A stretch of DNA of 64,000 nt from an uncultured archaeon (GTDB lineage: Archaea; Altiarchaeota; Altiarchaeia; IMC4; QMZM01). The notes beneath the pieces are model-generated. The model had not been told where the DNA came from, made no database searches, and saw only the letters and a list, made by a program, of their open reading frames with translations. Positions 1-24,237 of the stretch are shown in pieces (the first letter of the stretch is position 1; the number at the start of each line of letters is the position of its first letter). A program made the position numbers and the translations under genes. The DNA is taken from NCBI GenBank assembly GCA_964549685.1, contig CAZJVE010000004.1:7700-71699 (forward strand), given 5' to 3'.

Positions 1-20
1 ATAGAGGTTATGAAACTGGA

Positions 21-3000
21 GTGAGTGATGTGGAGGTTGCGAATATCTCCTCTGAGATATGTAAGATTGTTGAGGGCCTAGATGGGCATCCTCATATTTT
101 TGTGGGACAGACGGAATACAGATGGAACGGCAGCGCATGGGCTTCATCATCAGTCTTGAATAGAGGTATCGGAGACATCATAGTAAATGGTTCCCATTAT
201 CTAGCTTTAACTTCCTACAGTTCCGCGCCCACATACTCCTATGGAGAATTTGAATCCAGAACCTCTGATTCGGGGGCGTTTACCACAAAAATATCTCCTT
301 CGTCAAGCGTAGGGGCAATGAGTTCGACTGTAAGGCAAATAGGAGCTACCATATATGCTTCAGGGGGCTTTTGTATAGGTGGGGCCGGATATTATAGCAC
401 AGCCATTTACAACAAATCTAACTGGATTAATTCAACCTATCTAGATATTTATGGTGGTGGAAGTAACTGCAATCTTCATATAGAGGATAATGCTTTAATC
501 TTTGTGAATAACTCCTTCCATCTCTTTGCAAGCTATGTCTTGAGCGATGACATCAATGAGTCTATTACTCCAGATTACAATACTACCTTTACCGAGGCGA
601 CGGCCGTCTCCTCTCCATACTCCAAATACTTTTCTGCCGATGGAGGGGCTTATGGTTATCTGCTTTATAACCATAACGAGAGCTTTTCCTCCGTAGTCGC
701 AATCAGGCTCCAAGCCTACACCTATAATCTTTCCGGCTACGTAAGGAACGTCTTCAGCAGCCAGGTAATAGCTAATGCAAACGTATCCCTAAACTTCAGT
801 TCCGAAAACCACTCAACCATATCAGACAGCTCCGGCTACTACTTCTTCCAGGAACTGAGTGATATGTACAGCTACACGGTCTCAAAGGCAAACTACTCCA
901 ACTCCACAGGAACCATCATCGTCACGGGCACGAGCCATGATTTCTATCTCACACCGCTCATCCCGGACCTGTTTATAAATTCATCCTATATTGCAGTCGG
1001 GCCCGAATTCCCCCTAGTAGAACAGAACATCACCATAAACTTCACGGTCAGGAACGTCGGAGCCAACGCGACGGGTGTGGTTCTCGAGGTCTTCGACAAT
1101 AATGTCTCTATCGAGAATTTAACCTTCGGAAATCTCTCGATGAACGAGTCGAAGACGATGAATATTACGAGGAATTACTCGGCGGTTGGATTTCATGAGA
1201 TTCTGGCGGTGGTTGATCCTGATGATGCTGTGAGTGAGGTGGATGAGACGAATAACAATGCCACAGCGTGGGTGAATGTTGGAGAGAGATACTGGAATTG
1301 TGAGTATAGGACCGAGCATTTCATAATCAACCATTGCAGTTATGAGTATTTTATCTTTCCTACTGGCACGACTGTGGACCCTACTGACGATAATAATAAC
1401 AATGTGCCTGATTTTGTGGAGAAGATGGGAGATTTTTTCGAGAAGGTTTATACTTATGAGGTTACTGAACTGGATTATTTGCCTGCAGGTGACTCATATG
1501 ACAACGAGATGTATGGCTATCACGTGCAACTAATGGATATAGGTTCAGATTATGGTTTTGTCCCCCCTGCTTTAGTCAAACTACCAGGAGTCACTGGTTC
1601 CACTATACAAATAAATTCAGAACTATCATTTCATAATCTGCCGGACGCAGATACTAACGCTGATGGCATAATAGATGATACATTTCTTTTGAGCAATGCC
1701 GGCCACGAATATTATCATGGCATACAAATCAGATACTTGGATATACTATGTTTCAGTAACACATTAAGTAATAATGAAAACCTCTGGGTTATGGAAGGTT
1801 CTCCCGCTTGGATGGAGTATAAGATAGCTAGAAAATATTACCCCTCAATCGTCAAAGACGAAAGTGATGAACTGGTGTTTTTTTATAAAAGGATTGACCG
1901 GTTTATAGGGAATATATATGAAACTTTAAAGCAACAGAGCGATCATAGAAAGTATGATGCTGCTTTATTTTGGTGGTTTTTGGAAAACTATAAGGATTTA
2001 GACACTGTTAAGTCATTTTGGAGCAGTTTAGACCAGACATGTGGTATTTGGCGACAAGGAGGGGATCCAATATCAGCAATAGAAGACGCAACGGGAGAGG
2101 ACTTCAACGACATCTTCAAGACATTTGCAAAGGCCAATTACTTTAGAGATAGTTGGTATCCTGATGATATTCAATATGCAAGAAACACGCCATTTACATC
2201 GATAAATCTTGAAAATAATAACTCTCGAGAAATTCCTGTTACATCTGGTGGTATTGATGCTATGGGAGAATACGGAGCATTTTATTTCAAAATAACAGAT
2301 ATTCCAGCTAACAGTAACACTAGCATAATCTTCGAGAGCACAACGCCGGGAGAGAACTACTTCATAAGCATCTTTCTGGCAGGTGTTGAAGATCAAGGCG
2401 AAACCCACAATGCTTCAGAGGGCTATTCAAAAATACTAAATTCCAGCGAAAGCGAAGGTACTGTCGTAATTGTGGGTCGGCTGGGTGATGACACGGGAGA
2501 TGGAGACTACAAAATAACTTTCAGAGACATAAGCCCTAATAACCCAGAAACAAATCCAGAGATAAAACCTAACGAAACTATAAACGATACTAAAACCATT
2601 GACTCTACCGTGAAGCAAGCATACTTCAATATCGAGTGGGAAGACGGCGATCTTGATCAGATACTAATCGCACCGAATGGAACAGTCATAGATCCACAAA
2701 AGGCAGAGAGTGATCCCGATATAGATTACGTCGAAGGTTCAACTCTGGAATACTACCTCGTTAGAAACATAGAAGCTGGAGACTGGACATTGAACATAAC
2801 TGCAAACGACACATCAGCGACCCAGAACGTCACCGTCTCTACGTCACTTAGCAGCAACATTACCTTGTATGCATCAACCGATAAAAACCTCTACGAGCCA
2901 AACCAGACCATAAACATAACTGCGAACCTGACTCAGGAGGGCTTAGGCATGAACGACTCTACTGTGAAGGCCACAATCATAAAGCCAGGCTCGTCGGAGA

Positions 3001-4010
3001 ACATAAGTATGACTAACGAAGGTAACGGTATTTACAATGCCCTATACAATAACACCTCCACTGAAGGTTCTTACACGATAAAGGTTATCGCTAACGGTAC
3101 GGTTGGGGGCACCAACTTCACGAGAGAAACTACTATGGGGGTTACAGTTCAGAGCCTTCCTGATTTTGAGGTTAACGTATCAGACATAATCTTCTCTAAT
3201 TCAACGCCAAAAGCAGGAGAGAACATAACCATAAACGCCACTGTCTGGAATGTTGGCGACGCGGAAGCTAATGCCACTATCCTCATCTATGACAACACAA
3301 CCTTGGTAAACGATACCTCTGCCATACTAGAAGCGGGTGGAAACATAACATTCTCGACTCTTTGGGAAGTACCAACATCAGGCAATCATACGATAAAGGT
3401 TGGGGTTGATCCCACCCACCTTGTTACCGAGAGAAATGAAAGCAACAATGACGCAAACAAGTCATTAAACGTAAGTCCTGCGATGAAGTTGAGGATGGTT
3501 TGTTGGACTGACCAGGTAGACTACGAGCAGAACGATAATGTTAATATCAGTTGCGACCTTTACAATTATGATTGGACTAACATTTCTGTGGACTCTGTGC
3601 AAGCAGACATAAACGGAACCGAACTCGACCTGACCCAAGACCAGAACGCATCAAACAGGTATTCTGGACTGTTCACGCAGACAAGCCAAATAGGTATTTA
3701 CGTCATAAATATAACTGCCAGTAAAGCCGCTTATGTGAACTACACAACCATTCTGGCCTTCAAAATCATAGAAGCAACCTCAACAGCCAACTGCTCAGGT
3801 AGTGAACCAATCTTTTCTTTGGATTGGAACATTACCCAGTACACCGTTTGTGAGGATACTGACGTATCATTGGCTCAGAATAAGACAGTTAATTTTTTTA
3901 ATGAAACACTAATACTTAATAGTACAGAAGTTAATTTGAACTCCAGCAGAATGGACTTTGGAAGTGCGGGGGTGCTCACTATGGACAACTCAACAATATG
4001 GTTTTGGTGA
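21..4010 (+). CDS. Large secreted HExxH (gluzincin-like) metalloprotease-like surface protein with two CARDB-type Ig-like domains; probably 5'-partial at the window edge
   Basis: 1329-aa ORF. The frame stays open back to nt 3 and the N-terminus has no signal peptide, so the true start is probably upstream of the window. HEYYH at nt 1704-1718 is followed about 25 aa later by WVMEGSPAW (Glu codon 1794-1796), which fits an HExxH...E zincin pattern. CARDB-like segments at ~960-1280 and ~3165-3475 end in xESNNxA/ETNNNA. N-x-S/T sequons are very dense. Confidence 0.75.
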   Translation: MSDVEVANISSEICKIVEGLDGHPHIFVGQTEYRWNGSAWASSSVLNRGIGDIIVNGSHYLALTSYSSAPTYSYGEFESRTSDSGAFTTKISPSSSVGAMSSTVRQIGATIYASGGFCIGGAGYYSTAIYNKSNWINSTYLDIYGGGSNCNLHIEDNALIFVNNSFHLFASYVLSDDINESITPDYNTTFTEATAVSSPYSKYFSADGGAYGYLLYNHNESFSSVVAIRLQAYTYNLSGYVRNVFSSQVIANANVSLNFSSENHSTISDSSGYYFFQELSDMYSYTVSKANYSNSTGTIIVTGTSHDFYLTPLIPDLFINSSYIAVGPEFPLVEQNITINFTVRNVGANATGVVLEVFDNNVSIENLTFGNLSMNESKTMNITRNYSAVGFHEILAVVDPDDAVSEVDETNNNATAWVNVGERYWNCEYRTEHFIINHCSYEYFIFPTGTTVDPTDDNNNNVPDFVEKMGDFFEKVYTYEVTELDYLPAGDSYDNEMYGYHVQLMDIGSDYGFVPPALVKLPGVTGSTIQINSELSFHNLPDADTNADGIIDDTFLLSNAGHEYYHGIQIRYLDILCFSNTLSNNENLWVMEGSPAWMEYKIARKYYPSIVKDESDELVFFYKRIDRFIGNIYETLKQQSDHRKYDAALFWWFLENYKDLDTVKSFWSSLDQTCGIWRQGGDPISAIEDATGEDFNDIFKTFAKANYFRDSWYPDDIQYARNTPFTSINLENNNSREIPVTSGGIDAMGEYGAFYFKITDIPANSNTSIIFESTTPGENYFISIFLAGVEDQGETHNASEGYSKILNSSESEGTVVIVGRLGDDTGDGDYKITFRDISPNNPETNPEIKPNETINDTKTIDSTVKQAYFNIEWEDGDLDQILIAPNGTVIDPQKAESDPDIDYVEGSTLEYYLVRNIEAGDWTLNITANDTSATQNVTVSTSLSSNITLYASTDKNLYEPNQTINITANLTQEGLGMNDSTVKATIIKPGSSENISMTNEGNGIYNALYNNTSTEGSYTIKVIANGTVGGTNFTRETTMGVTVQSLPDFEVNVSDIIFSNSTPKAGENITINATVWNVGDAEANATILIYDNTTLVNDTSAILEAGGNITFSTLWEVPTSGNHTIKVGVDPTHLVTERNESNNDANKSLNVSPAMKLRMVCWTDQVDYEQNDNVNISCDLYNYDWTNISVDSVQADINGTELDLTQDQNASNRYSGLFTQTSQIGIYVINITASKAAYVNYTTILAFKIIEATSTANCSGSEPIFSLDWNITQYTVCEDTDVSLAQNKTVNFFNETLILNSTEVNLNSSRMDFGSAGVLTMDNSTIWFW

Positions 4011-4494
4011 CAAGTTGGATAAACGGATCAAAATCGGACTTAGTATAGCTACAATTTCCTTGTTTTTAGTCATACTTTGGCAATTGGGAATACTTGGTTA
4101 TGATCTAAGAACCTGTGACCCAGACCCTAGTGGTTTTGGTGGTTTCGGGTGGAGCGAAATGCTCGTTGATACTGATGGGACGTTTTATATTAAGGTTGTG
4201 GACCTGCCAGGGCATCCAATGACTTTTACAAACATAACTATCAAATCGCGTAAACCCGGAAATATAGATTATATTGTTGAAACTCCCTCCCTGCCGTTTG
4301 TGGTAACAAATCAAAGGGAATTTTTAATAGCAGGAAGATATGAACCTGTGACAGGTATAAAAGAAGGCGAAAAATGTTGGTTTCATGTTGATATGTTTTT
4401 CACTAAATCTGTGGCTGGAACTACAATAGAACATAAAGAATCTGCGATTATGTCTGGCAGATTTGGTATCGTAGAGTTACCGGAACCGTGTTGA
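3958..4494 (+). CDS. Hypothetical small membrane-anchored or secreted protein
   Basis: 178-aa ORF overlapping the upstream stop. An internal TTG at 4015 would give LDKRIKIGLSIATISLFLVILWQ as an N-terminal signal anchor. I recognised no family. Confidence 0.5.
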   Translation: MEVRGCSLWTTQQYGFGDKLDKRIKIGLSIATISLFLVILWQLGILGYDLRTCDPDPSGFGGFGWSEMLVDTDGTFYIKVVDLPGHPMTFTNITIKSRKPGNIDYIVETPSLPFVVTNQREFLIAGRYEPVTGIKEGEKCWFHVDMFFTKSVAGTTIEHKESAIMSGRFGIVELPEPC

Positions 4495-4540
4495 AGGGAC
4501 ACTTCTTAGCCTTCAGCAATCCAAATTCATACTCTTCCAC

Positions 4541-4572
4541 GAATTCACTATCCCTCAAAGCACAGTGAATTC
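4541..4572. promoter_or_regulatory. Perfect 9-bp inverted repeat (gaattcact / agtgaattc) with a 14-nt spacer, in the intergenic region before the giant gene
   Basis: gaattcact at 4541-4549 and its exact reverse complement at 4564-4572. It could be a hairpin/terminator for the upstream gene or an operator. Confidence 0.4.
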
Positions 4573-4601
4573 TCGCTGCTCGGTGCCATGGATTCGAATG
4601 G

Positions 4602-4615
4602 TGTAGTGCCTAACT
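4602..4615 (-). promoter_or_regulatory. 14-nt motif AGTTAGGCACTACA (minus orientation) upstream of the 4424-aa gene
   Basis: tgtagtgcctaact at 4602-4615 is the exact reverse complement of the motif found twice at 19247-19283. Confidence 0.5.
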
Positions 4616-4694
4616 TCCCCAACTTGTCTGAAAAATCCCGTCAAAACATGCATCATGCACGTTTTTATGTCTTCCATCAGCTATATTTAACAGG

Positions 4695-7600
4695 TTGGTT
4701 AATACCATTGGTTACCGATGGGTTGTTCTAGTATTAGTATTATTCCTAGCAACAGGATTAGCATCAGCGAAGACGCTGTATGTCAATGCCAGCGGGGGTG
4801 CTGACTTCGCCACCATAGGGAGCGCGATAACTGCCGCCAACAGCAGCGACGAGATTATTGTTTATAATGGGACCTACTACGAAGCCCTGACCCTTAACAA
4901 GCAGATTACGCTGAGAGGAGTAGATAAACCCACTATAGATTCAAACAGCAGTTCGAGTACTATTAAGATTACTTCAGAGGGTTGTGTCGTCGAAGGTTTT
5001 CGGCTGACCGGCAACGGCTCCAATATTGGAATGGAGGTCGGATCCGACAGAAATCTGATTGCGAATAACTCAATCTACGGAAATAATAAGGGAGTATCTA
5101 TTGAAGGACCATTTCTTGGCTGGGTATGGGATAGATTTGAGTGGGACAGGCCGCAAAGCAACGTTGTTATCAATAATAATGTTTCAGACAACCATGATGG
5201 ACTTTATCTCGCTCAGTCCTACAACGGCACTTTCATCAATAATTCCCTAACCAATAACACCTATAACCTCGCGGTTCGTGGAAGTGGTCTATATGACGAT
5301 TACCTATATGACTACAACCAGAGCATAGACACTTCAAATACTGTAAACGGAAAGCCTATCTACTATCTATTCAAACACAGCGACGAGGTAATCGATTCCG
5401 CAACCAACGCGGGCTGCGTCTATGTGATAAACTCTACCAACATAACTGTCAGGGATCTGAATCTAAAAAACAATTATTATGGGATTCTATTTGAGAATGT
5501 GAGGAATTCCAAAGCAGTGAATCTGACTCTTAAGGATAATTACAAGGGAATTTATCTGGATGAATCATCAGAGAGTCTTGCGATAAACAATAATATTTCA
5601 AACCATATGTGGGGTATAGAGGTCTATGAGTCCTCCAATAATAATCTCATAGGCAACAGAATCGAAAATTCGACCTACTACAGTATAGACCTCAGAACAG
5701 ATTCATTAGGAAATCTTGTACACCATAACAACCTTATAAACAACACCGGAAACGCACGTGATTTGACTGGTAGCAACAAATGGGACAACGGCTCCGCAGG
5801 GAATTACTGGAGCAATTATACAGGGACCGGTTCATACCCCATCCCAAGCAACTCGGAGGATAGGTACCCGCTAACCACAGAATACTCAAGCGACTGCACA
5901 CTCTCATCACTCTCAGTTACAATCCTTGCTCCCTCATCTGACTTTTCTATAACCCAAAAATGTCCAAATTCAATCAAAGCAATGATTCGGGATAACTGTG
6001 GTAATCTGCTGATAGGGGCAAAAGTAGATGCATTAATAGCCAATGAGGACTCAACTCTAACTCTCTACGATGACGGCAGCCATGGCGACGACACAAGCAA
6101 GGACGGAATATATGCTAACAACTGGACCCCCTCCAGCAACGGCTCCTATGTTATCAACGTAACAGCGAGCGGCCTTGCACTGAGCGATGGGGAAGCACAG
6201 CTCAGCGGCCTGGTAAAGAATTTCACAGGAATCATCGTGAATGCCAGCGCCACTGACGATTCTGGAAACTGCCTATGGAATTCAATCACAGAAGGAATAG
6301 CATCTGCAGATTCCGGAGATGTTGTCTTGGTTTACAATGGAACCTACAATGGAGGCATAACTATCAGCAAGCAGGTGAATCTTACCGGTATTGATTACCC
6401 TCTGATAAATGCTAGCGGAAATGCTGTTGTAATCTCAGCTAATGGTGCTGTAGTGGACGGTTTTAGGATTGCAGGATCGAGCAATGGAGTTTATATACAT
6501 GACCAGAGCAGTAATCTTATCAGGAACAATCTCATTACGAAAGGAGGTATCTATATACTGGGGACGGCGACTTATGTTTATGGTTACTGTGGGAACGCTG
6601 CCCATGATAACCAGATTATAAATAATTCTATCCAAGGAAAGATATTCCTGTACTGTACATATCTTGAAGACATCATAAATAATTCCATTTCCGGTGGATA
6701 TGCTGGCGTAAATGCCCTTGAAGCGTATGGGACCTCTATCATTGATAATGTTATATCCAACAACGGTCATGGTATATTTCTACAAAGTTCACAGTTTGTA
6801 GAGCTCAACAATAATACACTCCTAGATAACAACTATAGTTTGGCTATACTTGGGCGTTCATCATATGACTATACTCATGAGATAAATGCATCAAACACAA
6901 TAAACGGAAAACCAACTCTATACCTGATGAGTAAGGATAACATTACGATAGACTCGGCAAATAATTCCGGTTTTATAGGGGTCATAAATTCCAGCAATAT
7001 CACGATAAGAAACCTGACGATAAGTAGTAGTTATCAGGGAATTCTTCTTGCTTATAGCGAATATTCCGATATTGAGAACGTTACACTTATGGATAACTAT
7101 TATGGGGTTTACCTGGATAACTCATCCAATGGCTCCATTAATAACAATTTCATTGATAACTCCACTTTTGGTATACGTCTTCATGAGTCTGATGGAAACC
7201 ACATCTTCGGCAACGAGGTCAGGAATTCAAGCAGCATATATAACACAAGCATATACCTCTCCAGCTCCTCAGGGAATCTTGTATATCACAACAACCTGAT
7301 AAACAATTCTGGCCCGACAGGTTATGACAACTATGGCAGTAATGTCTGGGACACCGGCATTGAGGGGAACTACTGGAGCGATTACGCTGGCAATGATTCT
7401 AATGGCGATGGGATAGGCGATTGGGCCTATAATATCTCAGGAAGCAGCGTAAAGGACCGCTACCCGTTGATGCAAAAATATAACATGAGCTGCAGAAGGC
7501 ACGGGATTTCAATTACTCTCCTGTCGCCTCCTTCAGTAACCGGGGATAGCAACGTATCCATTATAACAAGAGCCATTGACAATTGCAAGAACCTCGTTGC

Positions 7601-10600
7601 TGGTGCAGCAGCAACTGCAAAGATTGACGGGAATCCGATACCTCCCTTATATGAAGATGTAAATCATACCTATCGAAGAGACATATTCAACATTATCGAT
7701 GGCTCTCACAGCCTTTACACCTGTGTCAATGACAGTTCAGGCGTCGGTAATTGCAGCAACACTTCCTTCAGGGTTGACCTGAAAACCCCATCCATCCTGA
7801 ATATCAGCTACGACAAGGGCACGGTTACTCCTTACGAGAATATCAATTTCACCGTTAATGTGAGTGATGTATCAGAGATTGAAAGCATAACTCTGAAAGG
7901 TGTGAATGAGTTCAATTTCACACTGAACGGAAGCATTGGTTATCTCATCATGAACATGTCGTCCCTTGGTTACGTCAATGACGGTAATCACTCACTTCTT
8001 GTTAACGCAACCGACATAGTAGGCAACTTCAACACAAGCAATTTCACGATAAGGATAAGGAACCCGGACCTGGTTGTCGGGAATCTGTCATGGAACCCAC
8101 AAAGCCCTGATGACGGAGAAATAGTCAACTTCACAATTAGAATCGACAATCTGGGTGGAATAATAACCTCTGCATTCCTAACGTCCCTGGAAATCAACGG
8201 CTCTCTTGCTGCACTGGAGACAAAATACAATCTTTCCGCCAACTCCTCATTCTCATTCGATGAAAACTGGAGCGCGTTCCCAGGGAACAATACATTAAAG
8301 GTAAAAGCAGATTATGCCACCCAGATTAACGAATCCAACGAGACCAACAACGAACTCCAAAAAATACTGGAAGTGGGTTATCCTGATCTAGAGGTCGTCA
8401 ATATAACCTGTACCTCGGTAAACGTAACCGAAGGCGACCCGGTAAACATTACTGCAAGGATAAAGAATCTCGGCTCAAGCACAAGAAGAGAATTCTACTG
8501 CAAGATTCTGATTGACAATTCAACAATCCTTGAGGAATCCATCAACGGCTTGAATTCCAATATCATAGTGAATCTCTCCAAAGGCTGGAATTCAACCGGT
8601 ATAGGGCAGCACATAATAAAGGCAATAGCGGACAGCGGAAACAACGTCTCAGAGTCCAATGAAAGCAACAGTCTCTCCATCTCAATCCAGATTAATCCAA
8701 ATCCCCTACCGGACGTTCTTGTAAGGGTTATGAATGCCAGCGGCTCTGCACTGGAGGGCGCCTTGGTAGCTCTCATCAATACCACCAACATATTCAGCAA
8801 TCTTACCTCCGAGAATGGAAGCGCATTCTTCAAGGACATACCTGTAGGAAATTACAGGGTCCAAGCCTACAAATCCGGATACTGGCAAAGCTCAACCAGC
8901 GTGGATTTGGAGATGGGAGAAACGGAAGAGGTAAACCTCACCCTGACCTCAAACAGCATAATATTTGGTGTTGTTAATGATGCCCTCACAGGAGACCCAA
9001 TCCCAAATGCAAACATAACACTCTCCAATATCCTGGAGTATTCCACACTGACTAATTCAACCGGGGGTTATTCTCTTTCGGATGTAAAACCCTCTGATTA
9101 CCAGATTAAGGCATGGGCCAGAAACTATGAAAGCAATACAACAGAGGTAACAGCGTCCGCTGCCGGAGTAATCCAACTTGATTTCTCCCTGATACCCTTC
9201 GGAGAGATTCATGGCGAGATTCTCAATTCCACAGGCAAGGTTTCAAACACAACGGTAATCCTCTATCGTGGAGACTCCTTCTCCTACTTCGTGAATAAAT
9301 CCACCGGCGACTTTTCATTCTTCAACATAAGCTCGGGCAATTACAGCTTGGAGTTCTCATCCACTGGATATAGGACAGATACGGTCGGAATAGAACTAAC
9401 CCCTGGCCAGAACCTCTCAAGGAACATCACGCTGAAAAGGAAGCCCTTCCTGAAGGGAACCGTAAAGGACAATCTAGACCAGACAGTAAGCAATGCCACA
9501 ATTCTCATATCAAACGAAAACGCAGTCATAAGTTCCGGCAAGAGCGACGAGAACGGAAGCTATAGCATAATGCTCCCCCTCTCGGGCACCTTCACGGTAA
9601 GAGCATCAGCCCAGAACCACTACTCCAGCACGAACACAACGACCGTTGATTATGACGGAGAGAAAAGCCTAAACCTGACACTAAGAAAGCACGGCATTGT
9701 AACCGGCTACGTTCTTGACTCCGTCTCCGATTTGAGAATAGAGAATGCAAACATCTACCTCGACGGCTCATTAAAGGTTACAGGAAACAACTACTCCATC
9801 AGCGCAGAGGAAGGGATTCATCTACTGTCGGCATCCGCCCCCGGCCATGTTTCGAATTATTCCTGGGTAAATTTCACCTCAGGAGAAAACATAAGCCTTA
9901 ACCTGTCCCTAAGTCCGGCAGGCAACCTCTCAGGCAATGTAACGAACTGGGATGGAGACCCGGTTGCAAACGCTTCGCTGACACTTGCAATGAATGGCCA
10001 GATAAAATCAATTGCAACAACAAATGCAAACGGGACATACAAATTCACAGGTATAATATATGGGAATTACACCTTGGAGGCATCTGCCTACGGCCACACC
10101 CCGGAATTAGCAAATCCGAGGGTATTTCCCCACCAGGAAGCCAAGCAGAACTTCTCGCTCAGGATGGCAGGAATTTATCCACATATAGACATCCCATACC
10201 GAATCTATTCCATAGGCGAAACGATAACATTCAATATCACTGCTACAGACCCATGGGATAATGTCACTAACATAACTGACATTTCCATCTCTCTGAAGAA
10301 AGGGAACCAGAGTGTCCCAATCCCGGCAGTAAGAATAGACAAGGGCTTTACAGCCAACTACACCATCCCCTCCAACGCAACCCTGGGCCAGTGGGTTCTG
10401 GCAATAAATATAACTGCCCTTGCCAACCTGACCCAGGAACTGGAAATCTTCCAGTTTTTCAGCCCGTTCTTCATCCAGCTGAGAAGCAACAGCAGCTACC
10501 TACAGAACAGCACCGCAATAATCCAGTCCAAGGTCTCCAGGTACAGCAACCTGAGCAGATTCCTAAACGACAGCGAGATAGACATAACTCTAACTGTCCT

Positions 10601-13600: not shown

Positions 13601-16600
13601 TTCCACCGAGGAGAAGATTCTTGTCAGACCATCACCACAGATAACGCTGGACTATTACATCCCTCACAAAGTTGGAGCCAACAAAACCTTTAAGCTGGCA
13701 GTAAAGGCAACCAACGACGGCCATGGAACCGCAAGCAATTTTGCCATAGACTCCGCCCAGCCTCAAATCTACGACAACAAAGCAGAGCTGCTGATAGACT
13801 TTGAGATACTTGGCGATGAGTCACTAAAGGTGAGCTTCGGAGACATCCCTCCCGGCGAGAGCAGGATTACCTCATGGAGCATGAGCTCGTCCCTGAACGG
13901 AACCTTTTCTGCCTTTACCGCTACTTACGCGCACGAGAATTCCTTTGGAGCCATGGAGACCTCCGTCATCAAGGATGTAAGGACTCACATAATCGAGCAG
14001 GAAATAAACACGAGCAAGGAGTATCTCGATTTCCTAATAGATTCTGATAACGACACCGTTCCCGACACACTGGTTGACCCGGTTAATGGAACTGCCACTA
14101 CTGTACTCTCTACAAACTACACTACTGTAGTTGAACTGCCATCCGGGGGCAGGGGGTTCACGATAGAGGTTAATGTAACAGACATCTTTAACTGGACCCT
14201 GATTGTAGTAAACGATTCTTATCTGGGCGATGTACCAATAGACGAGATAGTGTACTGGAATGGCACGCAGGTCGAGTCCACAAACTACTGGCTTCTTAAC
14301 AACAAGATATACTTCGTGATTTACATAGTCAATAATACCCGATACAACATAACCTACGACGGCGCTGCCCCCCTACCAAAAGCAGAAATAGTAATAAACG
14401 AAATCATGTACGACCCGGACACCGATAAAACCGGGGAATTCATCGAGCTCTACAACTACGGCAATTATTCTGTGGATTTGAGCGGATGGGAGATATTCGA
14501 TGATTCCGGTTCTGATACTCTGGCAGGATTCAATGGCAGCTCCTCCATTGTTGCTCCAGGCGGCTACGTAGTTATTACAGACAATGACAGCAAAGTCAAT
14601 GTATCTGATAACGCAACCCACCTAACGACAGGGGATACTACTGTCTGTCATCGCGGTCTGAAGAACTCGGGAGAGCTGCTAGTTCTCAAAGACAAATGGG
14701 GAGATATCAAAGACCAAATAGGCTATTCCTCACCTATGAAGAAGTGTGACGAGAATTTCTCCCTCGAGAGGATTAATCCGCTGGAGAATTCCTCTAACAT
14801 AAGCAACTGGGACCAGAGCAATGTATCGGGAGGAACACCCGGAATGACAAACAGCATCTATGGAAGGGCAGCAATTACTACGACTACTACCAGTACCTCA
14901 ACCACTACAACAACTACAACATCCACTACAACTACATTGCTGCCGGCAAAGGCCCTGCAGTGTGGGGTCTACAATTCCTCCGAATGCACTGGTGGCAGAG
15001 GGAACCTAACCTGCATATTCTCACTATACAATGAAACCAACGCCCACGCCGGAAGCTGCGGCGAATACAGCAAGGCGGTCTGCTGCAACATCTCGAATGG
15101 AACAGTAACCAGCACTGTAACGACAAGCAGTTGCCCTGCCGGGGATGGTAGGGTGATTTCCATGCATTCGACGACCAATTCTCATGTCGCAATTTACGGC
15201 GTTGATAATTACCAAAACAACGTATGTTTGGACATTGACATAGCAAACGTTACCTGTACCACAAACAACCTTAATTGTCCGTCAGGCTACTATGGCAAAT
15301 TAGCCTCAATCTACAGACCAGGAAATGCCCATGTAGGGAACTTTTCGTACTACAACTTCAAGGTATGCTGCAATGCTACTGAGGTCTCAACCACAACTAC
15401 AACGACAACCACTACAATACCAACACTATCATCAGAAATTGTGATTAATGAGGTGATGTACGACCCAGGAGACGGCAACAAAGGAGAATTCGTCGAGCTA
15501 TATAATGACGGAGATTATGCCGTAAACCTGGCGGGATGGAGAATCTCTGATTCAAGCTCGACTGATACTCTGGAAGGATTCAACGGAAGCTCGGCAGTAA
15601 TAGTGTCCAAGGGCTATGCAGTCATAACAGCTAATGATACATCAGCAACTCCGCTGGGGAGTTCAACCCACCTGAGCACTGGAGACAAGAGAATCGGAAA
15701 CGGCCTCAATAATGGTGGAGACATTGTTACTCTAATCAACACCTTGGGCAATGTCACGGACAGGATTAACTACTCACAGACGCCTTGGTGCGACGATAAC
15801 CGCTCGCTGGAGAGGGTCAGTACCGATGAAGATTACTGGAATGAGAGTCTTGAAGATGGAGGAACCCCTGGATATGCTAACAGCGTTTCACAGGGCGGCC
15901 CACGAGCAGTTCTTGATTATTACCTCCCATCAGAGGTGCTGGCCAACAAGGACTTCAAGATGGTGATAAAGGTCAACAACGAAGGCCAGGGAGCATTGAA
16001 AGACTTTGCCATAGCTTCTGCCCAGCCCAAGGTAAAAGGAAAATCCAAAGCCAACCTTAACTGCCAGGTATCCAATTCCTCCCTGGTGGGCAAGGGCAAG
16101 GGGAAATCCCTCATGATGAATTTCTCGGATATTCAACCAGGGAAGAGCAAGCTCGTCCACTGGACCATGAATACTGACGAGGACGGAAATTTCACAGAGT
16201 TCGAGGCCACCTTCCGCTATCAGAATCCTGCCGGGAAGGTGAAGAAACTTTCCACCGAGATAAGAATTCACTTATTGGAGAGGGAAATCTACACCAACAA
16301 GGAGGATTTTGACTTCCTTGTAGACTTCGATAATGACGGAATCCCCGACCAGATACTGGAATCCATCTACGGCAACACGACCAATGTCTCCAAGGTTAAC
16401 TATTCCATTCACACCCAACTTCCACCACAGGGGAAGGACTTTAGCATCGAGATTAACAAATCCGGCTGGATATACATCCCTGTTGAAGACCCCTACAACA
16501 ATACAGTATCCATAGAGAAGATAACCCTGGAGAACGGCACAGTTCTTCATTCACAAAATTACTGGCTGGATGATAATAAAATCTATATCCTAGATGACCC

Positions 16601-17969: not shown

Positions 17970-17973
17970 TAAA

Positions 17974-17982
17974 CATTTATAC
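17974..17982 (+). promoter_or_regulatory. TATA-box-like element (catttatac)
   Basis: It lies ~30 nt upstream of the ATG at 18008, consistent with a leaderless or near-leaderless archaeal transcript. It is too close to the ORF-track start at 17987. Confidence 0.45.
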
Positions 17983-18007
17983 AAGAATGAGAAAAATAGT
18001 ATTTAGG

Positions 18008-18535
18008 ATGGAGATGAGAGATTTTTTAATTGGTGGGTTTATTGTACTAATTTTATTCACAGGCTGTACTGATGGAGGAAACCCGCTCAGCACGGGCCCC
18101 AAAGAGGTCTCAGTGGACCTAAGCACTCCGGAAGGGGTGATTGAGGCTTATTGGAAGTATATTGATGTTGGGAAATATGATGAGGTGTATGATCTATTTT
18201 GTGATGATAGTTACTTCGATCAGATTAAAGGTGGTGGTGCTAGTAAAAACTATTACAGTAAGGAAAGTTTCATGGATCATATGGTAAGTGCTTACGGAGA
18301 ACAAGGCGAGAAATTAGATGCGAGTTCCCCAAAGATTACAGGGAAAAACTTACTAAGCAGCAGACGTGCTAGCATTTATGGGATAGGTACAGCGGCAGAG
18401 GAGGGCTACGGTATAGGTTGTGAAGCAGGTAAAGTATTGGCTAGTAGCCCCAGTGGACGGCGGGGTTGGGTAGATATCCGCGGTGGTGGAATAGTGGTCA
18501 AACACAACGGTAGATGGTGCATCGCAAGCGAGTGA
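18008..18535 (+). CDS. Putative lipoprotein, NTF2-like/DUF4878-like
   Basis: The ORF-track start is 17987, but TATA spacing favours the ATG at 18008. Lipobox-like LILFTGC follows a hydrophobic segment. VIEAYWKYIDVGKYDEVYDLF resembles the first helix of small NTF2-fold lipoproteins. Confidence 0.55.
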   Translation: MEMRDFLIGGFIVLILFTGCTDGGNPLSTGPKEVSVDLSTPEGVIEAYWKYIDVGKYDEVYDLFCDDSYFDQIKGGGASKNYYSKESFMDHMVSAYGEQGEKLDASSPKITGKNLLSSRRASIYGIGTAAEEGYGIGCEAGKVLASSPSGRRGWVDIRGGGIVVKHNGRWCIASE

Positions 18536-18593
18536 TAATTCTAATGAATTCTCTTTCACAAGGATTTATTCTGGAAGACCAAATGATTAATTG

Positions 18594-19223
18594 ATGGAAA
18601 AATTTCTCTTAGTTATCATTCTGGGTATCGTGCTCCTTTCAGGTTACTGGCTCTATTCGGGCCAGCAGGAAATGACTGGGACTCATACTTTAATATCATT
18701 ACCTAAAGAGATCGAAATCGTGCACCAGGGCTATAAAAGTAGATACGAGCACAAGGGAATCCCTATCGAATTTTCTGAAAATTCAATCAAATACAAAGAA
18801 AAGAAAGACATAGAAGATATCAAAGCGGCATTAACGCTGATCAAGGACAAATCACCTGAGGATTATCGAATGGTTGAAACATATGTAGATGAGATAACGA
18901 TTATTATTGTAGTAATGTATGGTGGCACAGGTGGACAATATACTAGGGGGACAAAGGATATTGATGTAATGCTGCAGATAATAAACCCTAAATGTGTCAA
19001 TTGCGATTTGACATCTGAGGATTACGAGAGGTTAGCAGGTGTAATCGTTCATGAGGCATGTCATTCTATGAGGTACAATACAGGCGTAGGGAGTGCCTTG
19101 GGGCTTGATGAAAATATTTCCCGTGAGGCCATTGAGGAAGAAGCTTGCATTGGAATGGGGAATGATTTCCTGGAAAGGATAAGGAGTGAGCACAGACAGG
19201 AGCCATATTCTGCTGAGGAGTGA
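18594..19223 (+). CDS. Small membrane-anchored HExxH protein (putative minimal zinc metallopeptidase)
   Basis: N-terminal TM segment FLLVIILGIVLLSGYWLY. HEACH motif at ~19050-19064, with downstream acidic residues (EAIEEE). The ORF begins TTG-ATG and the ATG at 18594 is preferred. Confidence 0.55.
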   Translation: MEKFLLVIILGIVLLSGYWLYSGQQEMTGTHTLISLPKEIEIVHQGYKSRYEHKGIPIEFSENSIKYKEKKDIEDIKAALTLIKDKSPEDYRMVETYVDEITIIIVVMYGGTGGQYTRGTKDIDVMLQIINPKCVNCDLTSEDYERLAGVIVHEACHSMRYNTGVGSALGLDENISREAIEEEACIGMGNDFLERIRSEHRQEPYSAEE

Positions 19224-19246
19224 TTCGGTAGGATCGAATCCCCCGG

Positions 19247-19260
19247 AGTTAGGCACTACA
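19247..19260 (+). promoter_or_regulatory. 14-nt motif AGTTAGGCACTACA, copy 1, upstream of the 1636-aa gene
   Basis: Exact 14-mer, repeated 23 nt downstream. It lies just upstream of the TATA-like tttaaata at ~19289. Confidence 0.5.
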
Positions 19261-19269
19261 TCTTAGCAA

Positions 19270-19283
19270 AGTTAGGCACTACA
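19270..19283 (+). promoter_or_regulatory. 14-nt motif AGTTAGGCACTACA, copy 2
   Basis: Exact direct repeat of 19247-19260. The 23-nt centre-to-centre spacing is about two helical turns. Confidence 0.5.
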
Positions 19284-19326
19284 ATCAAGTTTAAATAACT
19301 CTAAACTAATCTATAACTGAACAAGG

Positions 19327-22300
19327 GTGGACCCCAGGATTTTATTTATGGGCTGCATGTTTTTTCTCATTCTAATCAGCTCTGCAGATGCAGCAATATA
19401 TAACTGCTCCAACTGTTCCAACTGCGAGTCAGCAATCTCAGATGCTTCGGCCGGGGACACGGTCAACCTTTTGGCTGATATAGCAAACCAGTCCTGGAAC
19501 TGCATCGTCTGGGACAACAGCAACGTAACATTCGACTGCCAGCAGCACGGTATAGATGGTACTGACACCCTCTACGGAATTGTCATGGAGTACGACAAAG
19601 GAAACGTCATAAAAAACTGTGTGATTACTGACTTCATGATGGGGATATACCTCTATTATTCCGACAACAACCAGATTGGCGATAATACTATAGAGTCAAA
19701 CACCGGCAATGGAATCAAGCTGAGTCATTCCGCTGGCAACCTGATATCCGGCAATACATTGAAATCAAACACGGAGGACGGGCTCTATGTCTTTGGTTCA
19801 GGGAGCCAGGACAACACCATTCTCAACAACCTCGCGAGCTCGAACAACTACAACGGAATCTACATCCGCGACTCCTCCAGCAATACCCTCACAAACAATA
19901 CTGCAAACTCCAACGACGACCACGGAATCCGCCTTCGCGAGTCCTTCAACAACACCCTCACAAGCAATACAGCAAACTCCAACACAATGGACGGAATCAG
20001 TTTGTATGATTCCTCCAACAACACCATTACAGGAAACACCGCAAACTCGAACAGCTATTATGGAATCTACATCGTCTATCCCTCGGGCAGCACGGTGAAC
20101 TCGAACGAGGCGTGCTATAACGATGTAGATGATATCCACCTCTATAACAGCGAGGATAACTCAGGAGATGAGAACACCTGCGACACGACCTATGAGTGGA
20201 ACGATGAAGGAGCTACTGGATGCACCAATGCCTGCGGGGCTGCAACATCGACCAGCAGCACATCTACATCAACCTCGACAAGCACGACACCAAGCACGAT
20301 AAATGTTACTACGTCTACATCCACATCGACCAGTACAATATCGACAACCAGCACTACCTCAACCTCGACAAGCACAAGCACAACAACCCTGCCCTTGGGG
20401 GAGACTACCTGCAGCAACTGCTCCGACTGCAGCAATAAACTGAACGGAAGCTACTCCACAGTCAGGCTTGATGCCGATATAACCGAACACAGCCACAACT
20501 GCATAGAATTCAATACAAATGGCACGGTGTTCGACTGCCAGGGCCATATCATTGATGGGAACTATACTTCCCTATCCGGCAGCGGAGTTTATATCTCAGA
20601 CAAGTCCTCCAACACAGTAAAGAACTGCATAATCACGGACTTCAACCGTGGAATCTACGTTTACTACTCGCCCAGCAATACTCTCATAAACAACTCCGTC
20701 TCGAGCAACATGTATGGCGTCCATCTCCACATGTCCAACTATAGCACTATCGACAGCAACACAGTGGAATCGAATCTGGATTTCGGCATTCTCCTGTCCT
20801 TTTCCAGCTACAGCTACATGGCGAATAACAGGTTTTGCTCACACGGAGTCCTGGATATATTCCTGGAATACGTTACAGGAAATTCCGGCGACGAGAACAC
20901 CTGCGACAGCCCCGGAGGATGGAACGATACGGGAACAACCTACTGCACATATGGCTGCAGTGCAGTAACGACAACAACAACATCAACAACCTCCACAACC
21001 ACAATCCAGCCCCAGGTAATGCTGGCGAGAATTCTCCCTGATGAGGCCCTTCCGGGCGAGAATCTAACGGTCACACTTAGTCTGGACGTAAACGAATCGA
21101 ACACCCCGAACAGCATCGGTATAACTGAAACACCGCCGGCCGGCTGGGAGATATTGGAGACGTCAATAGACGGCAACCTTCAGTCAGCACCCGGCTCGAT
21201 AGAGTGGCTTCTCTGGGACATGGGCACATCGGTGGAGGACATGAATATCACATACACCTTGCACGTGCCAGAGAATGCAAATGGAACCTATTACTTCAGT
21301 GGGGAGTTCATGTACTACCTGGGCGATACGCGCACGGATGACAACATATTCGGCGATGAGCTGATAATCGTCAATGGAACATCCGTCCTGAGGCCGCACC
21401 TTACGGTCTCAAGGGGCAACACAACAATAAACGAAAATTACATAGACCTCGAATTTATTGTAGAGAATGATGGCAATTCAACGGCAGAGAATATAAGCGT
21501 CTGGACCTGGCTTGCTGGGTTCATTCCTGCAAGGGAGACCACCTACAACTACAATTCCAGCAACTTCTCGTTGGAGAGCTATGGTTCTGCCGTAAAGCTC
21601 GTGCTGAACTCGCTGGGGTCTCAGACCTCCACCAGCATGCGCTTCACCGCAGTGCCTGTTCTTGCCGAGGATGATGTTGACTACGAGATTGATTCCACAG
21701 GCCATGTGGACGTAACCTACATTGACAGCGACGGGGTTGAATACTCCGAAACCTTCACGACATCTGCAAGCATCCAGGAGCAGGACGTCTACTCGGCAAT
21801 CTCGGCCTCGGACTACCTTATAGTTACGAACCCTTCAAGGCTCTACTCCTACTACTCCAATGCCGATGTCCATAGCCTTCTCCTGGTAATGAGCAAACTG
21901 GCAAGGGAGGAGAACGGCGTTCTCGGCTTTGTTACGAACTATTCGGCAGAGTCCCTGGAGAGACTGATAGACAACGGATGGAACGGCAGGATGAATTCCC
22001 AGTGGAGGGACGACGGATTCCTGCTCCTTGTCGGAGAGACCGAGATAATCCCGTCCTGGGACATCAGCTTCGATTGCGAGGGCAGCCTCCCCCTATCCCT
22101 GACGGCCACGAGCTCGGATAACGTCTATGCCGACATACTGGAGGGCGACTCCTATGCCCCCGAGCTGTATATCGGCAGAATCATAGGGAATTCCGCCAGC
22201 GACCTGGAGAATTCCATCACGAACTCAATCGACGCCTCTCTGCAGAGGGACAATGCGCTGATTGCCAGTGGAAGCGGAAACGGGTGGGAGAGCTTCCTCA

Positions 22301-24237
22301 ACAACGCAATCGAGGCTGTAGACATACTGAGCGACTGGTTCAGCACAACCCGGCTCTACATGGGCAACTACAGCACGGACGGGGAGAAATTCAACGAGTT
22401 CAGCAGTTATACGAGCGATGCCGACCTGATATTCTGGAGGGACCACGGCTCCGAGCAGTCCTGGGGCACCGGCTTCATCGATACGGACAATGCAGCCAGC
22501 CTGGACTTGAGCTCCCTTCCATTAGTCTTCTCATCCGCATGCCTCACCGGGCATTATCAAAATACCTACAGCCTGGCCGAGGCCTTCCTTGCCAATGGCG
22601 CTGGAGTATTCATCGGCTCGACCGAGGTCAGCTACCGCACATTCAACAACGAATTCTCCAAGACGTTCTTCAATGAGTTCATGCACTCTACTGAGCGGCC
22701 GGTGGGCAAGTCACTGCGGGAGGCAAAGAGGGAGTTCAGGTCTGCAGGAACCGGCTCCTGCCAGATGAAGGCCCTGCTTGGCTATACGATAAACGAATAC
22801 AACCTCTATGGCAATCCGAAGCTCGGCTCCAGTTCGATACAGCAATCAGAGCTGATAGGAATACAGACCGTGGAAGGGCCGCTCTCCTCCCTCAATGTCA
22901 CGGTTCCGGACTACACTGTAACTGAGATGTTCAGCGAGCACTGGGTCGAGATTCCCAGCGGCAACATGCTCCTCGAGCCGGGCAACTGGCAGATACCCTA
23001 CTACAGGACAGCCATATCCTATCCTGCGGGCTATAAGGTACAGGGCGTTTCCATACTGGAAAGGGACGGTCTTATGCAGGCTACCGGGTTGATCATCCCT
23101 GAAGTGAGCATGGAGACGGGTGGAATTCCAACGGATAAGAGCCATGGCGTATTGCCGCAGAACCCCGGCTTCTATCCCAGCTCCGACTTCAGTTGGGAGA
23201 CGGTCGAATACCTTAACGGTACAACTATCCTCGTCATCTCGATGTACCCGTTCTACTACGATGCCAATACGACTGAGGTTCAGTTCTACAAGAACTACTC
23301 CTTCGGAATAAGCTACAGTCTATCTTTTGTGACTATGGGCCGGGTGCAAACGGACAAGGAAAACTACCTGATTGGAGAGCAGGTCAGCATAAGCTTTGAC
23401 GCAAACAACACACAGATACCCATAAACGCCACCGTCAATGCAACGATAAGGTACTATGGCAACAACGAGATTGCAGACTCGATAGGCCCCCAGACAATCA
23501 GCGTGGATGCCGGCGTTACGGAGGGTCAGATATACTGGAATTCCACCGGCTTTGAGGCAGGGTATTATCTCGTCAGCGTGAAGCTGTCAGACCCCAACGG
23601 ATATGAGCTGGACTCAGCAACCGAGAGATTCAGACTTGGTTTAGTTTCCGGTGAGATGGCTGATTTCTCGGCGTCGCCCCAGAGAATACGGATAGGGGAG
23701 TACGCGAACATTTCGCTAATATTCGATAACATCGGCACAGAGAACATCTCCGGTTCAGCCGCAATAAAAATCTACAATTCAAGTAGCTCTCTAGTGGGGG
23801 AGTTCAACCACAGTTTCACCAACCTGAACCCCCTGGACGCAGTTGACTTCTCATTCATATTCACTCCTTCGGCTGTCGATACGTACAAGATAATCGGCTT
23901 CATCCTCTACGGGAGCGAATCCACAGAGCCGCAGGAGATTAACATGACTGTGGGGTGTGCCATGAGGGGAGATGCCCAACCCTGTGACTCCATAATCGAA
24001 GACCTGGAGTTCCTGCTTTACCTGGACCTATGGGGCCAGGACGAGGTGGAGAATTCCCAGGTTCTTGAATCTGTTGAAAACTGGATAGATTATGGTAGCT
24101 GTGAGATAGAGGGGGACACCCCGCCATGCGGCGCTGTAGAGCTGGCTGAGGTGATAGATTTTATAACTGAGTGGGATGCAGGAAGTGCAGATTTGGAGGA
24201 CGTAATCGATTTGATAAACGAATGGGTGCCGGAGTGA
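19327..24237 (+). CDS. Large (1636 aa) secreted protein: two beta-helix (PbH1/NosD-like) modules, Ser/Thr linkers, C25 (gingipain-like) cysteine peptidase domain, Ig-like domains and a C-terminal duplicated helical Cys module
   Basis: Signal peptide MGCMFFLILISSADA (ATG at 19348 is the likelier start). CSNCS..C caps and N..x.N repeat rungs at ~19390-20230 and ~20400-20960. C25-like catalytic dyad context: FWRDHGSEQSW (His codon 22444-22446) and VFSSACLTGHY (Cys codon 22540-22542), plus YADILEGD..PELYIGRI. Confidence 0.85.
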   Translation: MDPRILFMGCMFFLILISSADAAIYNCSNCSNCESAISDASAGDTVNLLADIANQSWNCIVWDNSNVTFDCQQHGIDGTDTLYGIVMEYDKGNVIKNCVITDFMMGIYLYYSDNNQIGDNTIESNTGNGIKLSHSAGNLISGNTLKSNTEDGLYVFGSGSQDNTILNNLASSNNYNGIYIRDSSSNTLTNNTANSNDDHGIRLRESFNNTLTSNTANSNTMDGISLYDSSNNTITGNTANSNSYYGIYIVYPSGSTVNSNEACYNDVDDIHLYNSEDNSGDENTCDTTYEWNDEGATGCTNACGAATSTSSTSTSTSTSTTPSTINVTTSTSTSTSTISTTSTTSTSTSTSTTTLPLGETTCSNCSDCSNKLNGSYSTVRLDADITEHSHNCIEFNTNGTVFDCQGHIIDGNYTSLSGSGVYISDKSSNTVKNCIITDFNRGIYVYYSPSNTLINNSVSSNMYGVHLHMSNYSTIDSNTVESNLDFGILLSFSSYSYMANNRFCSHGVLDIFLEYVTGNSGDENTCDSPGGWNDTGTTYCTYGCSAVTTTTTSTTSTTTIQPQVMLARILPDEALPGENLTVTLSLDVNESNTPNSIGITETPPAGWEILETSIDGNLQSAPGSIEWLLWDMGTSVEDMNITYTLHVPENANGTYYFSGEFMYYLGDTRTDDNIFGDELIIVNGTSVLRPHLTVSRGNTTINENYIDLEFIVENDGNSTAENISVWTWLAGFIPARETTYNYNSSNFSLESYGSAVKLVLNSLGSQTSTSMRFTAVPVLAEDDVDYEIDSTGHVDVTYIDSDGVEYSETFTTSASIQEQDVYSAISASDYLIVTNPSRLYSYYSNADVHSLLLVMSKLAREENGVLGFVTNYSAESLERLIDNGWNGRMNSQWRDDGFLLLVGETEIIPSWDISFDCEGSLPLSLTATSSDNVYADILEGDSYAPELYIGRIIGNSASDLENSITNSIDASLQRDNALIASGSGNGWESFLNNAIEAVDILSDWFSTTRLYMGNYSTDGEKFNEFSSYTSDADLIFWRDHGSEQSWGTGFIDTDNAASLDLSSLPLVFSSACLTGHYQNTYSLAEAFLANGAGVFIGSTEVSYRTFNNEFSKTFFNEFMHSTERPVGKSLREAKREFRSAGTGSCQMKALLGYTINEYNLYGNPKLGSSSIQQSELIGIQTVEGPLSSLNVTVPDYTVTEMFSEHWVEIPSGNMLLEPGNWQIPYYRTAISYPAGYKVQGVSILERDGLMQATGLIIPEVSMETGGIPTDKSHGVLPQNPGFYPSSDFSWETVEYLNGTTILVISMYPFYYDANTTEVQFYKNYSFGISYSLSFVTMGRVQTDKENYLIGEQVSISFDANNTQIPINATVNATIRYYGNNEIADSIGPQTISVDAGVTEGQIYWNSTGFEAGYYLVSVKLSDPNGYELDSATERFRLGLVSGEMADFSASPQRIRIGEYANISLIFDNIGTENISGSAAIKIYNSSSSLVGEFNHSFTNLNPLDAVDFSFIFTPSAVDTYKIIGFILYGSESTEPQEINMTVGCAMRGDAQPCDSIIEDLEFLLYLDLWGQDEVENSQVLESVENWIDYGSCEIEGDTPPCGAVELAEVIDFITEWDAGSADLEDVIDLINEWVPE

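Follow-up and report, generated by a model that had tools for sequence, protein, structure and literature searches.

A likely accessory cell-surface island of predicted giant glycoproteins and protease-type modules in an uncultivated Candidatus Altiarchaeota archaeon

We analysed a 64,000 nt stretch of DNA (the window), positions 7700–71699 of contig CAZJVE010000004.1 (C4, also numbered L009), from the metagenome-assembled genome (MAG) of an uncultivated Candidatus Altiarchaeota archaeon (G000; 1.17 Mb, 27 contigs, 85 % complete), the closest named relatives of which are the 'Candidatus Altiarchaeota archaeon' MAGs JAHIKS01 and WALD01. The left part of the window probably belongs to an accessory ('flexible') cell-surface island of 28.15 kb. 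Presence or absence at a conserved site and deviating composition, two marks of such an island, were both observed. In G002, a member of the same genus with approximately 79 % nt identity, the sequences corresponding to C4:1598–3809 and C4:31963–37397 are contiguous but for approximately 125 bp, and the 28,153 bp between them (window −3889 to 24263, of which 3.9 kb lie upstream of the window) are therefore missing there. The island makes up 2.4 % of the roughly 1.2 Mb genome, encodes nine products and is bordered by an ilvN-like ACT gene on one side and a gene for a SPEARE-type membrane ATPase on the other; no RNA genes were found within it. The right half of the window carries ordinary archaeal housekeeping genes, e.g. 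those for riboflavin synthesis, DHQS-II, LeuA and IlvD. A preliminary description of the window had proposed a 24-kb island of six consecutive same-strand genes. All six plus-strand open reading frames (ORFs; 21(3)–4010, 3958/4015–4494, 4695–17969, 17987–18535, 18591–19223 and 19327–24237) are real, and the proposed extent fell short. The borders and main genes are as follows, in window coordinates unless C4 is named.

C4:3810 (window −3889, outside the window): left border of the island, placed by the indel relative to congener G002
C4:3962–4771, minus strand (outside the window): nucleotidyltransferase gene, 269 aa, at the left edge of the island (NTP_transf_2, E = 1.3e-9)
1–4010, plus strand: 3′ 1335 codons of the gene for a 1445-aa secreted multidomain protein, the ORF being read as 1329 aa within the window
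4015–4494, plus strand: small 159-aa protein with an N-terminal transmembrane (TM)/signal-anchor segment, likely start TTG 4015
4695–17969, plus strand: predicted 4424-aa tail-anchored giant glycoprotein with signal peptide, recognized by domain scans and sequons
17987–18535, plus strand: 182-aa lipoprotein-like protein (175 aa according to the public gene caller) with a lipobox-like LFTGC
18591–19223, plus strand: 210-aa mini-HExxH protein with N-terminal TM helix, HEACH at 19050–19064 and an ExE..C motif approximately 25 residues downstream
19327–24237, plus strand: 1636-aa secreted beta-helix and C25 cysteine peptidase protein; G+C content at third codon positions (GC3) 0.66, 75th percentile
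24238–24263: right border of the island; from 24264 on, 62 nt ahead of the SPEARE-type gene, the sequence is again homologous to G002
24326–28711, same strand as the island: SPEARE-type ATPase gene, 88 nt from the last gene of the island

Partial or altered versions of the locus were found in other relatives. The second congener, G001 (89 % nt identity), carries, upstream of the SPEARE-type gene, the 3′ end of a mini-HExxH gene, two copies of a 14-mer word, AGTTAGGCACTACA, and the SPEARE promoter, without the C25 gene. Metagenome contigs of relatives (L011–L014; 88 % nt identity in SPEARE/ParA) show the order giant, 1063-aa C25 gene, SPEARE and ParA, and in L011 and L012 the lipoprotein-like and mini-HExxH genes are absent from the equivalent site between the stop of the giant gene and the 14-mer. 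The C25 gene of L011 has the promoter and signal peptide of the island gene and lacks a 540-aa double beta-helix insert; since the L011/L012 gene is otherwise collinear, these modules must have been inserted or deleted in frame. The giants of the island and L011 are alike (75 % aa identity) only in the C-terminal third, which bears the lamin-tail domains (LTDs), and the parts before it are different. Compared with L011, the island genes have diverged further (79–82 % nt identity) than the flank (88 %), and this faster divergence would fit diversifying or relaxed selection on surface proteins. The empty site of G002, the lack of the C25 gene in G001 and the partial version in L011/L012 strongly support the earlier expectation that the region varies between strains.

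Across the 48 other genomes of the order, no orthologue of the large HExxH domain of the 1445-aa protein was found (E≤1e-5), and the C25 domain gave only paralogue-type matches of 25–32 % identity, in four genomes; close relatives of the C25 half were likewise not found among the genome contigs. These results bear on the view that the genes are conserved core envelope components of Altiarchaeota, forming an S-layer or a hamus-type filament. The hamus of Ca. Altiarchaeum hamiconexum consists of a large glycosylated protein with a NosD domain (PMC4460559, PMC4975002), in the architecture S_Layer_N, NosD and FKBP_C (PMC4975002). The island belongs to the same phylum, and its large, sequon-rich surface proteins share NosD/beta-helix modules with the hamus. 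Compared by this published domain architecture, however, the island proteins differ in that neither S_Layer_N nor FKBP_C was detected in Pfam scans. Moreover, they are not conserved: the island is missing at the syntenic site of G002, only generic beta-helix parts match relatives within the order, and beta-helix proteins are numerous paralogues in the host genome itself. We therefore give a core-envelope role, which the preliminary description had named as the alternative to strain variation, almost no credence.

The second line of evidence for an accessory island is its composition, which the preliminary description had set as a test. Eight of the nine island genes have a GC3 of 0.32–0.52 (0.6th–16th percentile of the genome), e.g. 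0.318 for the 159-aa protein (0.6th percentile), 0.393 for the lipoprotein-like protein, 0.456 for the 1445-aa protein (5.5th percentile) and 0.525 for the 4424-aa giant (16th percentile), and only the C25 gene is typical. Tetranucleotide windows of 5 kb within the island reach the 95th–99th percentile. The low GC3 extends to small genes that are not rich in Asn, Ser and Thr, and the bias is thus not just a matter of amino-acid composition. Both outcomes named beforehand as speaking against a variable island, a conserved core and ordinary composition, were contradicted, and that reading therefore holds.

Low GC3 over most of the block could also indicate an integrated mobile element, a provirus remnant, or an assembly or binning chimera. 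In favour of mobility, the nucleotidyltransferase at the left edge has an N-terminus with a weak match to the transposon-associated DUF2080 ('transposon-encoded protein'), and the dispersed 14-mer lies at internal junctions. All island ORFs are accounted for, however, and no integrase, transposase, capsid, terminase or conjugation gene is among them; there is no flanking tRNA and no long direct repeat, and both flanks are syntenic with G002. As for a chimera, the Logan assembly of public run SRR24302413 contains a 72.7 kb contig that reproduces the entire island in collinear order, with 100 % identity over both junctions, which excludes chimeric assembly, and the right-hand part was assembled in Joint Genome Institute (JGI) metagenomes of relatives. 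Taken together, these explanations are highly unlikely. Pieces of the island recur in runs SRR8146442 and SRR24302412; in the contigs of the three public runs, no within-population variation was seen (100 % identity). Phase variation via long near-identical repeats was rejected, as none is present and only 69-nt beta-helix coil repeats were found. Scans of metagenome contigs with the promoter pattern and the SPEARE N-terminus gave no match. Beside the nucleotidyltransferase gene, the gene caller of Logan called a 60-aa ORF.

The 14-mer AGTTAGGCACTACA occurs at three intergenic points of the island, as follows.

C4:4830–4843, minus strand (outside the window): one copy
4602–4615, minus strand: one copy, 80 nt upstream of the 4424-aa gene
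19247–19260 and 19270–19283, plus strand: two direct copies, shortly before the promoter of the C25 gene

The genome of 1.17 Mb holds 27 exact copies compared with approximately 0.01 expected, dispersed and mostly intergenic, and these rule out a word specific to the big genes of the island. The 14-mer lies beside every rearrangement junction seen (G001, L011 and G002), the copy of G002 being degenerate. It may represent a regulatory site or a recombination hotspot. A second element, CTAATCTATAA, of which the genome has only three copies, is found together with a TATA-like box upstream of both the C25 gene (19306–19316) and the SPEARE-type gene (24280–24290). Its presence in both upstream regions suggests that the C25 cassette was inserted into, or partly copied, the SPEARE promoter.

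This arrangement raises the question of whether the island and the adjacent SPEARE-type ATPase form one apparatus for cell–cell contact or uptake, in which separate laminin-G, adhesin and protease proteins would take the place of the fused ectodomain of nanohaloarchaeal SPEARE proteins. These ectodomains unite laminin-G and adhesion domains with protease domains, and cytoplasmic parts of a SPEARE-like type have been reported from Altiarchaeales (PMC6642349). The domain repertoire of the island resembles these ectodomains (PMC6642349), the SPEARE-type gene follows on the same strand after 88 nt, the order giant, C25, SPEARE and ParA is retained in L011/L012, and a partial duplicate of the SPEARE promoter element lies upstream of the C25 gene. 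Yet G002 retains SPEARE, ParA and the coiled-coil gene without any island, and the association is therefore dispensable. In the more distant relatives G011 and G023, the genes upstream of the SPEARE homologues are unrelated. The adjacency may reflect simply a permissive insertion site; a physical or regulatory link is a proposal only, and a single apparatus seems unlikely. As in the SPEARE proteins of Nanohaloarchaeota (PMC6642349), a laminin-G, adhesion and protease vocabulary stands beside or is fused with a membrane-anchored ATPase/restriction-type cytoplasmic domain, and the size is giant; in contrast, the adhesion and protease parts of the island are separate genes upstream, and its proteases are of the C25 and HExxH types, not serine proteases. 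It is also conceivable, albeit doubtful, that in Altiarchaeota the 'head' (adhesin, lectin, protease) of a SPEARE-like machine is encoded by separate genes, swapped as cassettes at promoters marked by the 14-mer; all three rearrangement junctions in relatives lie beside a copy of this word. The genes for the SPEARE-type ATPase, ParA, an 820-aa coiled-coil protein and an 80-aa protein (24326–32359) form a block in G001, G002 and L011/L012, with or without the island.

As for the products of the accessory island, the domains first named for the six ORFs were all recovered. The adhesin-like 4424-aa giant does carry lamin-tail domains, among the following features.

aa ~30–400 and 520–900: two beta-helix/NosD modules
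aa 1123–1330: two CARDB domains
aa 1340–2420: at least six CarboxypepD_reg modules and immunoglobulin (Ig)-like modules
aa 2420–3000: stretch without Pfam match
14376–14729, 15429–15776 and 16764–17111, plus strand: LTD1, LTD2 and LTD3 (Pfam PF00932)
17847–17966, plus strand: C-terminal TM helix ELSIVAILLLLSATGYA and basic tail MKKGRGKKKG

On the whole protein, PF00932 matched three stretches with E = 1.6e-46 and 157.6 bits, compared with a gathering score of 34.3, and in scans of overlapping pieces each LTD exceeded the cut-off (E = 7.8e-20, 2.3e-20 and 6.6e-11). The protein also contains two paralogous modules of approximately 245 aa, a Cys-repeat module and poly-Thr/Ser linkers. Between poly-Thr linkers, a Cys-containing repeat of approximately 40 aa occurs three times (14938–15385); it gave no Pfam match, and a lectin module of the trefoil type would be consistent with its three-fold symmetry.

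The first ORF of the window had been described as a 1329-aa protein with HExxH and CARDB domains. Both domains were confirmed (CARDB twice, HEYYH once), along with CarboxypepD_reg and MG2 in Pfam, and the length was corrected: the true start lies outside the window at C4:7372 (window −327), giving a 1445-aa protein with signal peptide MKKIIILLGMLALIMGAEA in which no C-terminal anchor was found. Upstream of the window, its gene is preceded by that of a 724-aa secreted laminin-G glycoprotein (Laminin_G_3). The catalytic candidate is the following domain.

1275–2552, plus strand: HExxH (gluzincin-type) putative metallopeptidase domain of the 1445-aa protein, with HEYYH at 1704–1718

A conserved LWxxEG lies 25 residues downstream of HEYYH, and the two motifs together represent a predicted gluzincin third-ligand signature. 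Over profile positions 10–272 of 290, the domain matches NCBIfam NF045524 (MXAN_6640_HExxH; E = 5.5e-18, 65.7 bits), and it appears from this to be a distant relative rather than a member by the rule of NCBI. A length-limited search of 5.8 billion proteins returned three homologues only. HEYYH is conserved in both homologues that cover it, and LW..EG is invariant in all four aligned sequences. A profile search also matched PDB entry 4fgm, of the aminopeptidase-N family, weakly (E = 0.016), with HEYYH...LWxxEG aligned to HExxH...LWFYEG. The domain has in common with the MXAN_6640 family and M1/M61-type gluzincins an HExxH followed approximately 25 residues on by LWxxEG, and near-full profile coverage, but it sits inside a 1445-aa CARDB/MG2 surface protein and scores below the family cut-off. 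The metagenomic homologues P0123 and P0124 terminate in canonical two-repeat dockerins, and the island protein and homologue P0122 in ...DNSTIWF[WR], without a recognisable anchor.

The small protein encoded downstream probably starts at TTG 4015, 5 nt past the stop of the preceding gene, rather than at 3958. It has the N-terminal TM/signal-anchor segment expected of the 'small anchored protein' first described; no Pfam or NCBIfam family was found for it. A conserved pairing of the HExxH giant with this protein was ruled out, since the protein after homologue P0122 is unrelated.

The 1636-aa protein had been described as a beta-helix protein with a C25 peptidase domain, and both parts were verified, as listed here with its C-terminal tag.

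19399–21015, plus strand: two NosD/beta-helix modules with poly-Ser/Thr linkers (aa 25–563)
22000–22824, plus strand: Peptidase_C25 catalytic domain (Pfam PF01364)
22444–22446 and 22540–22542, plus strand: predicted catalytic residues His1040 and Cys1072
23953–24234, plus strand: C-terminal tag, a degenerate copy (23953–24087) followed by a canonical copy (24088–24234)
C2:84704–84847, C2:89803–89946, C3:86175–86312 and C12:17127–17270: further tag copies in the host genome, with approximately 20 more

The C25 domain was not detected when the protein was scanned at full length and was found on the excised C-terminal half; the piece at 21700–23400 matched PF01364 with E = 7.9e-32 and 111.3 bits (cut-off 23). 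PF01364 is likewise a precomputed match of the same protein (P0008). In the match to gingipain R (4ief/1cvr; E = 1e-7), HGSEQSWGT lies over HGSETAWGT and FSSACLTG over FDVACVNG, with His and Cys in register. Metagenomic homologues of the beta-helix and C25 protein have 65–73 % aa identity and occur in unrelated contexts. As in the case of gingipains R and K of Porphyromonas gingivalis (family C25), a large multidomain secreted protein ends in a C-terminal sorting or attachment module, whereas the island C25 domain sits behind beta-helix modules and terminates in an Altiarchaeota-specific two-helix tag. A type IX secretion C-terminal domain is absent because the host is an archaeon.

This tag is a Trp-capped two-helix module of approximately 48 aa with a Cys-x8-Cys pair (C-x3-GD-x2-PC-G-x-V-x-L-AEVID-x-I-x-LW-x6-L-x-DVIDLIN-x-W). 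It also stands at the C-terminus of at least 13 other secreted proteins of the host, many of them unrelated to each other. A profile search found it at 24 places in the host genome and in 10 of the 49 genomes of the order, belonging to only four genera, with 5–27 copies each; no match was found in Pfam (last 120 aa, E≤0.01) or PDB. The tag resembles a dockerin (PF00404) as a short duplicated-helix module ending many different secreted proteins, some copies of which have a DxDxDG EF-hand-like loop, and Cohesin domains are present elsewhere in the genome. A dockerin has two such loops and the tag only one, in the place of which most copies have a Pro-Cys turn and the Cys pair. A true dockerin was unsupported: there was no Dockerin_1 match, and the hhalign probability against a canonical dockerin was 0.4 %. 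The idea that C25 acts as a PorU-like sortase for the tag was ruled out by genera g6 and g8, which have 9–27 tag copies per genome and no C25 match. The three Pfam Cohesin domains of the host genome (C2:106840–107124, C3:86316–86711 and C2:85403–85795) each share a protein with the 48-aa tag, and in a 3384-aa giant on C3 domain and tag are directly adjacent.

Between the giant and the C25 gene, the lipoprotein-like protein belongs to no Pfam or NCBIfam family that we could find. The mini-HExxH product has both the N-terminal TM helix and the HEACH motif first noticed in it. Its family is tiny, with 11 matches among 1.84 billion representative proteins; HEAxH is invariant in nine aligned members, with the ExE..C motif downstream, and the AlphaFold2 (AF2) model of the protein has a predicted local distance difference test score (pLDDT) of 81.8. 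Neither the nucleotidyltransferase nor the mini-HExxH protein gave a match when looked up by exact sequence, probably due to start-codon differences. A small, unrelated ENA metagenome contig (ERZ24794666; L027) carries homologues of the lipoprotein-like protein (36 % identical; 3–320) and the mini-HExxH protein (65 %; 1813–2451). Two unrelated genes lie between them, and this arrangement hints at a loose functional pairing. All three protease modules of the island are credible peptidases, with catalysis predicted in each case.

The preliminary description had attributed sequon saturation, poly-Thr/Ser linkers and a plain C-terminal TM helix with basic tail to all the large proteins, and each attribution proved true in part. 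Compared with residue shuffles, sequons are in strong excess in the 1445-aa protein (73 in the ORF vs 24 expected, z = 12.1) and the 4424-aa giant (210 vs 87, z = 16.0), as also in the upstream laminin-G protein (z = 7.8), but only weakly in the C25 protein (z = 2.0). The density in the first three is 4.0–5.05 per 100 aa, which ranks them in the genome at the 99.4th percentile or higher. Poly-Thr/Ser linkers are limited to the 4424-aa and C25 proteins, and the C-terminal TM helix with basic tail to the 4424-aa protein, the other two of the three lacking it. The reported lack of a PGF-CTERM-type signal extends to all ORFs of the genome with a C-terminal TM helix; the flags of a loose PGF pattern fell in polytopic membrane proteins or in plain TM-plus-basic tails. 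No PF09721 (Exosortase_EpsH) match indicating an archaeosortase was found in the genome, with a model of limited sensitivity in control genomes and a MAG that is 85 % complete. An AglB/STT3 oligosaccharyltransferase is encoded at C1:24258–25172 (64.4 bits, above the cut-off). Sequon excess and this enzyme are together the marks of archaeal N-glycoproteins, and glycosylation of the island proteins is accordingly predicted.

Several points weigh against the reading of the block as an accessory island for attachment and degradation. The normal composition of the C25 gene makes the island a mosaic rather than a block acquired as one. Neither an integrase or transposase gene nor a flanking tRNA was found, and mobility is hinted at only by the 14-mer word and by the nucleotidyltransferase with its weak DUF2080 match. 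Because the MAGs of the relatives are incomplete (85–86 % complete), absence from them is weaker evidence than the contiguous empty site of G002; moreover, gain here and loss in G002 are both possible. Concerning function, the large HExxH domain does not reach the curated NF045524 cut-off (65.7 vs 140 bits), and its AF2 model is unusable (pLDDT 41). The best Foldseek neighbours of the mini-HExxH model in PDB are mostly zincin metallopeptidases, all of them weak (best E = 0.01, TM-score 0.30–0.48). That the proteins are glycosylated, lie at the cell surface and act in adhesion and proteolysis is predicted throughout.

From domain content alone, a function in attachment and degradation is plausible, and the parts might work together as follows. 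The signal peptides would direct the proteins to Sec export, and the proteins would be heavily N-glycosylated. The C-terminal helix of the 4424-aa giant would keep this protein in the membrane, with its beta-helix, Ig-like and lamin-tail modules projecting outward, and the mini-zincin would be anchored by its N-terminus. The C25 enzyme may dock via the two-helix tag to a putative partner, and the laminin-G and HExxH giants may be released or held non-covalently. Together, these proteins would form a strain-specific cell coat with adhesive and proteolytic properties, the genes of which may be gained, lost and exchanged cassette by cassette and domain by domain.

Altiarchaeota are abundant uncultivated archaea of subsurface and marine habitats with unusual surface structures, and they are hosts of viruses and DPANN symbionts. 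To our knowledge, almost nothing is known of their surface biology apart from the hamus protein. The island provides a concrete accessory locus with boundaries at the base-pair level, which probably determines such strain-specific surface properties as how the cell attaches, degrades proteins and is recognized by viruses or partners. It also illustrates the evolution of giant surface proteins in archaea, by insertion and deletion of whole genes and, in frame, of domains. Predicted enzymes of interest are an archaeal C25 peptidase and members of two HExxH families that are very rare.

Flexible islands with variable surface glycoproteins and giant proteins occur in, e.g., Haloquadratum walsbyi (halomucin) and marine bacteria, and under-recruitment in metagenomes is a usual observation that defines them. 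The island belongs to this known kind and adds no new principle; what is noteworthy are its domain-level indels, a putative docking tag specific to the lineage, the C25 peptidase in an archaeon and the rarity of the HExxH families. As in the flexible islands of H. walsbyi and marine bacteria, presence or absence at a fixed site goes along with atypical composition and module shuffling, and the content is mostly giant, secreted, glycosylation-rich, multi-repeat surface proteins. Compared with these, the host is an Altiarchaeota MAG of roughly 1.2 Mb, and the adhesin-like giants are joined with three protease-type modules.

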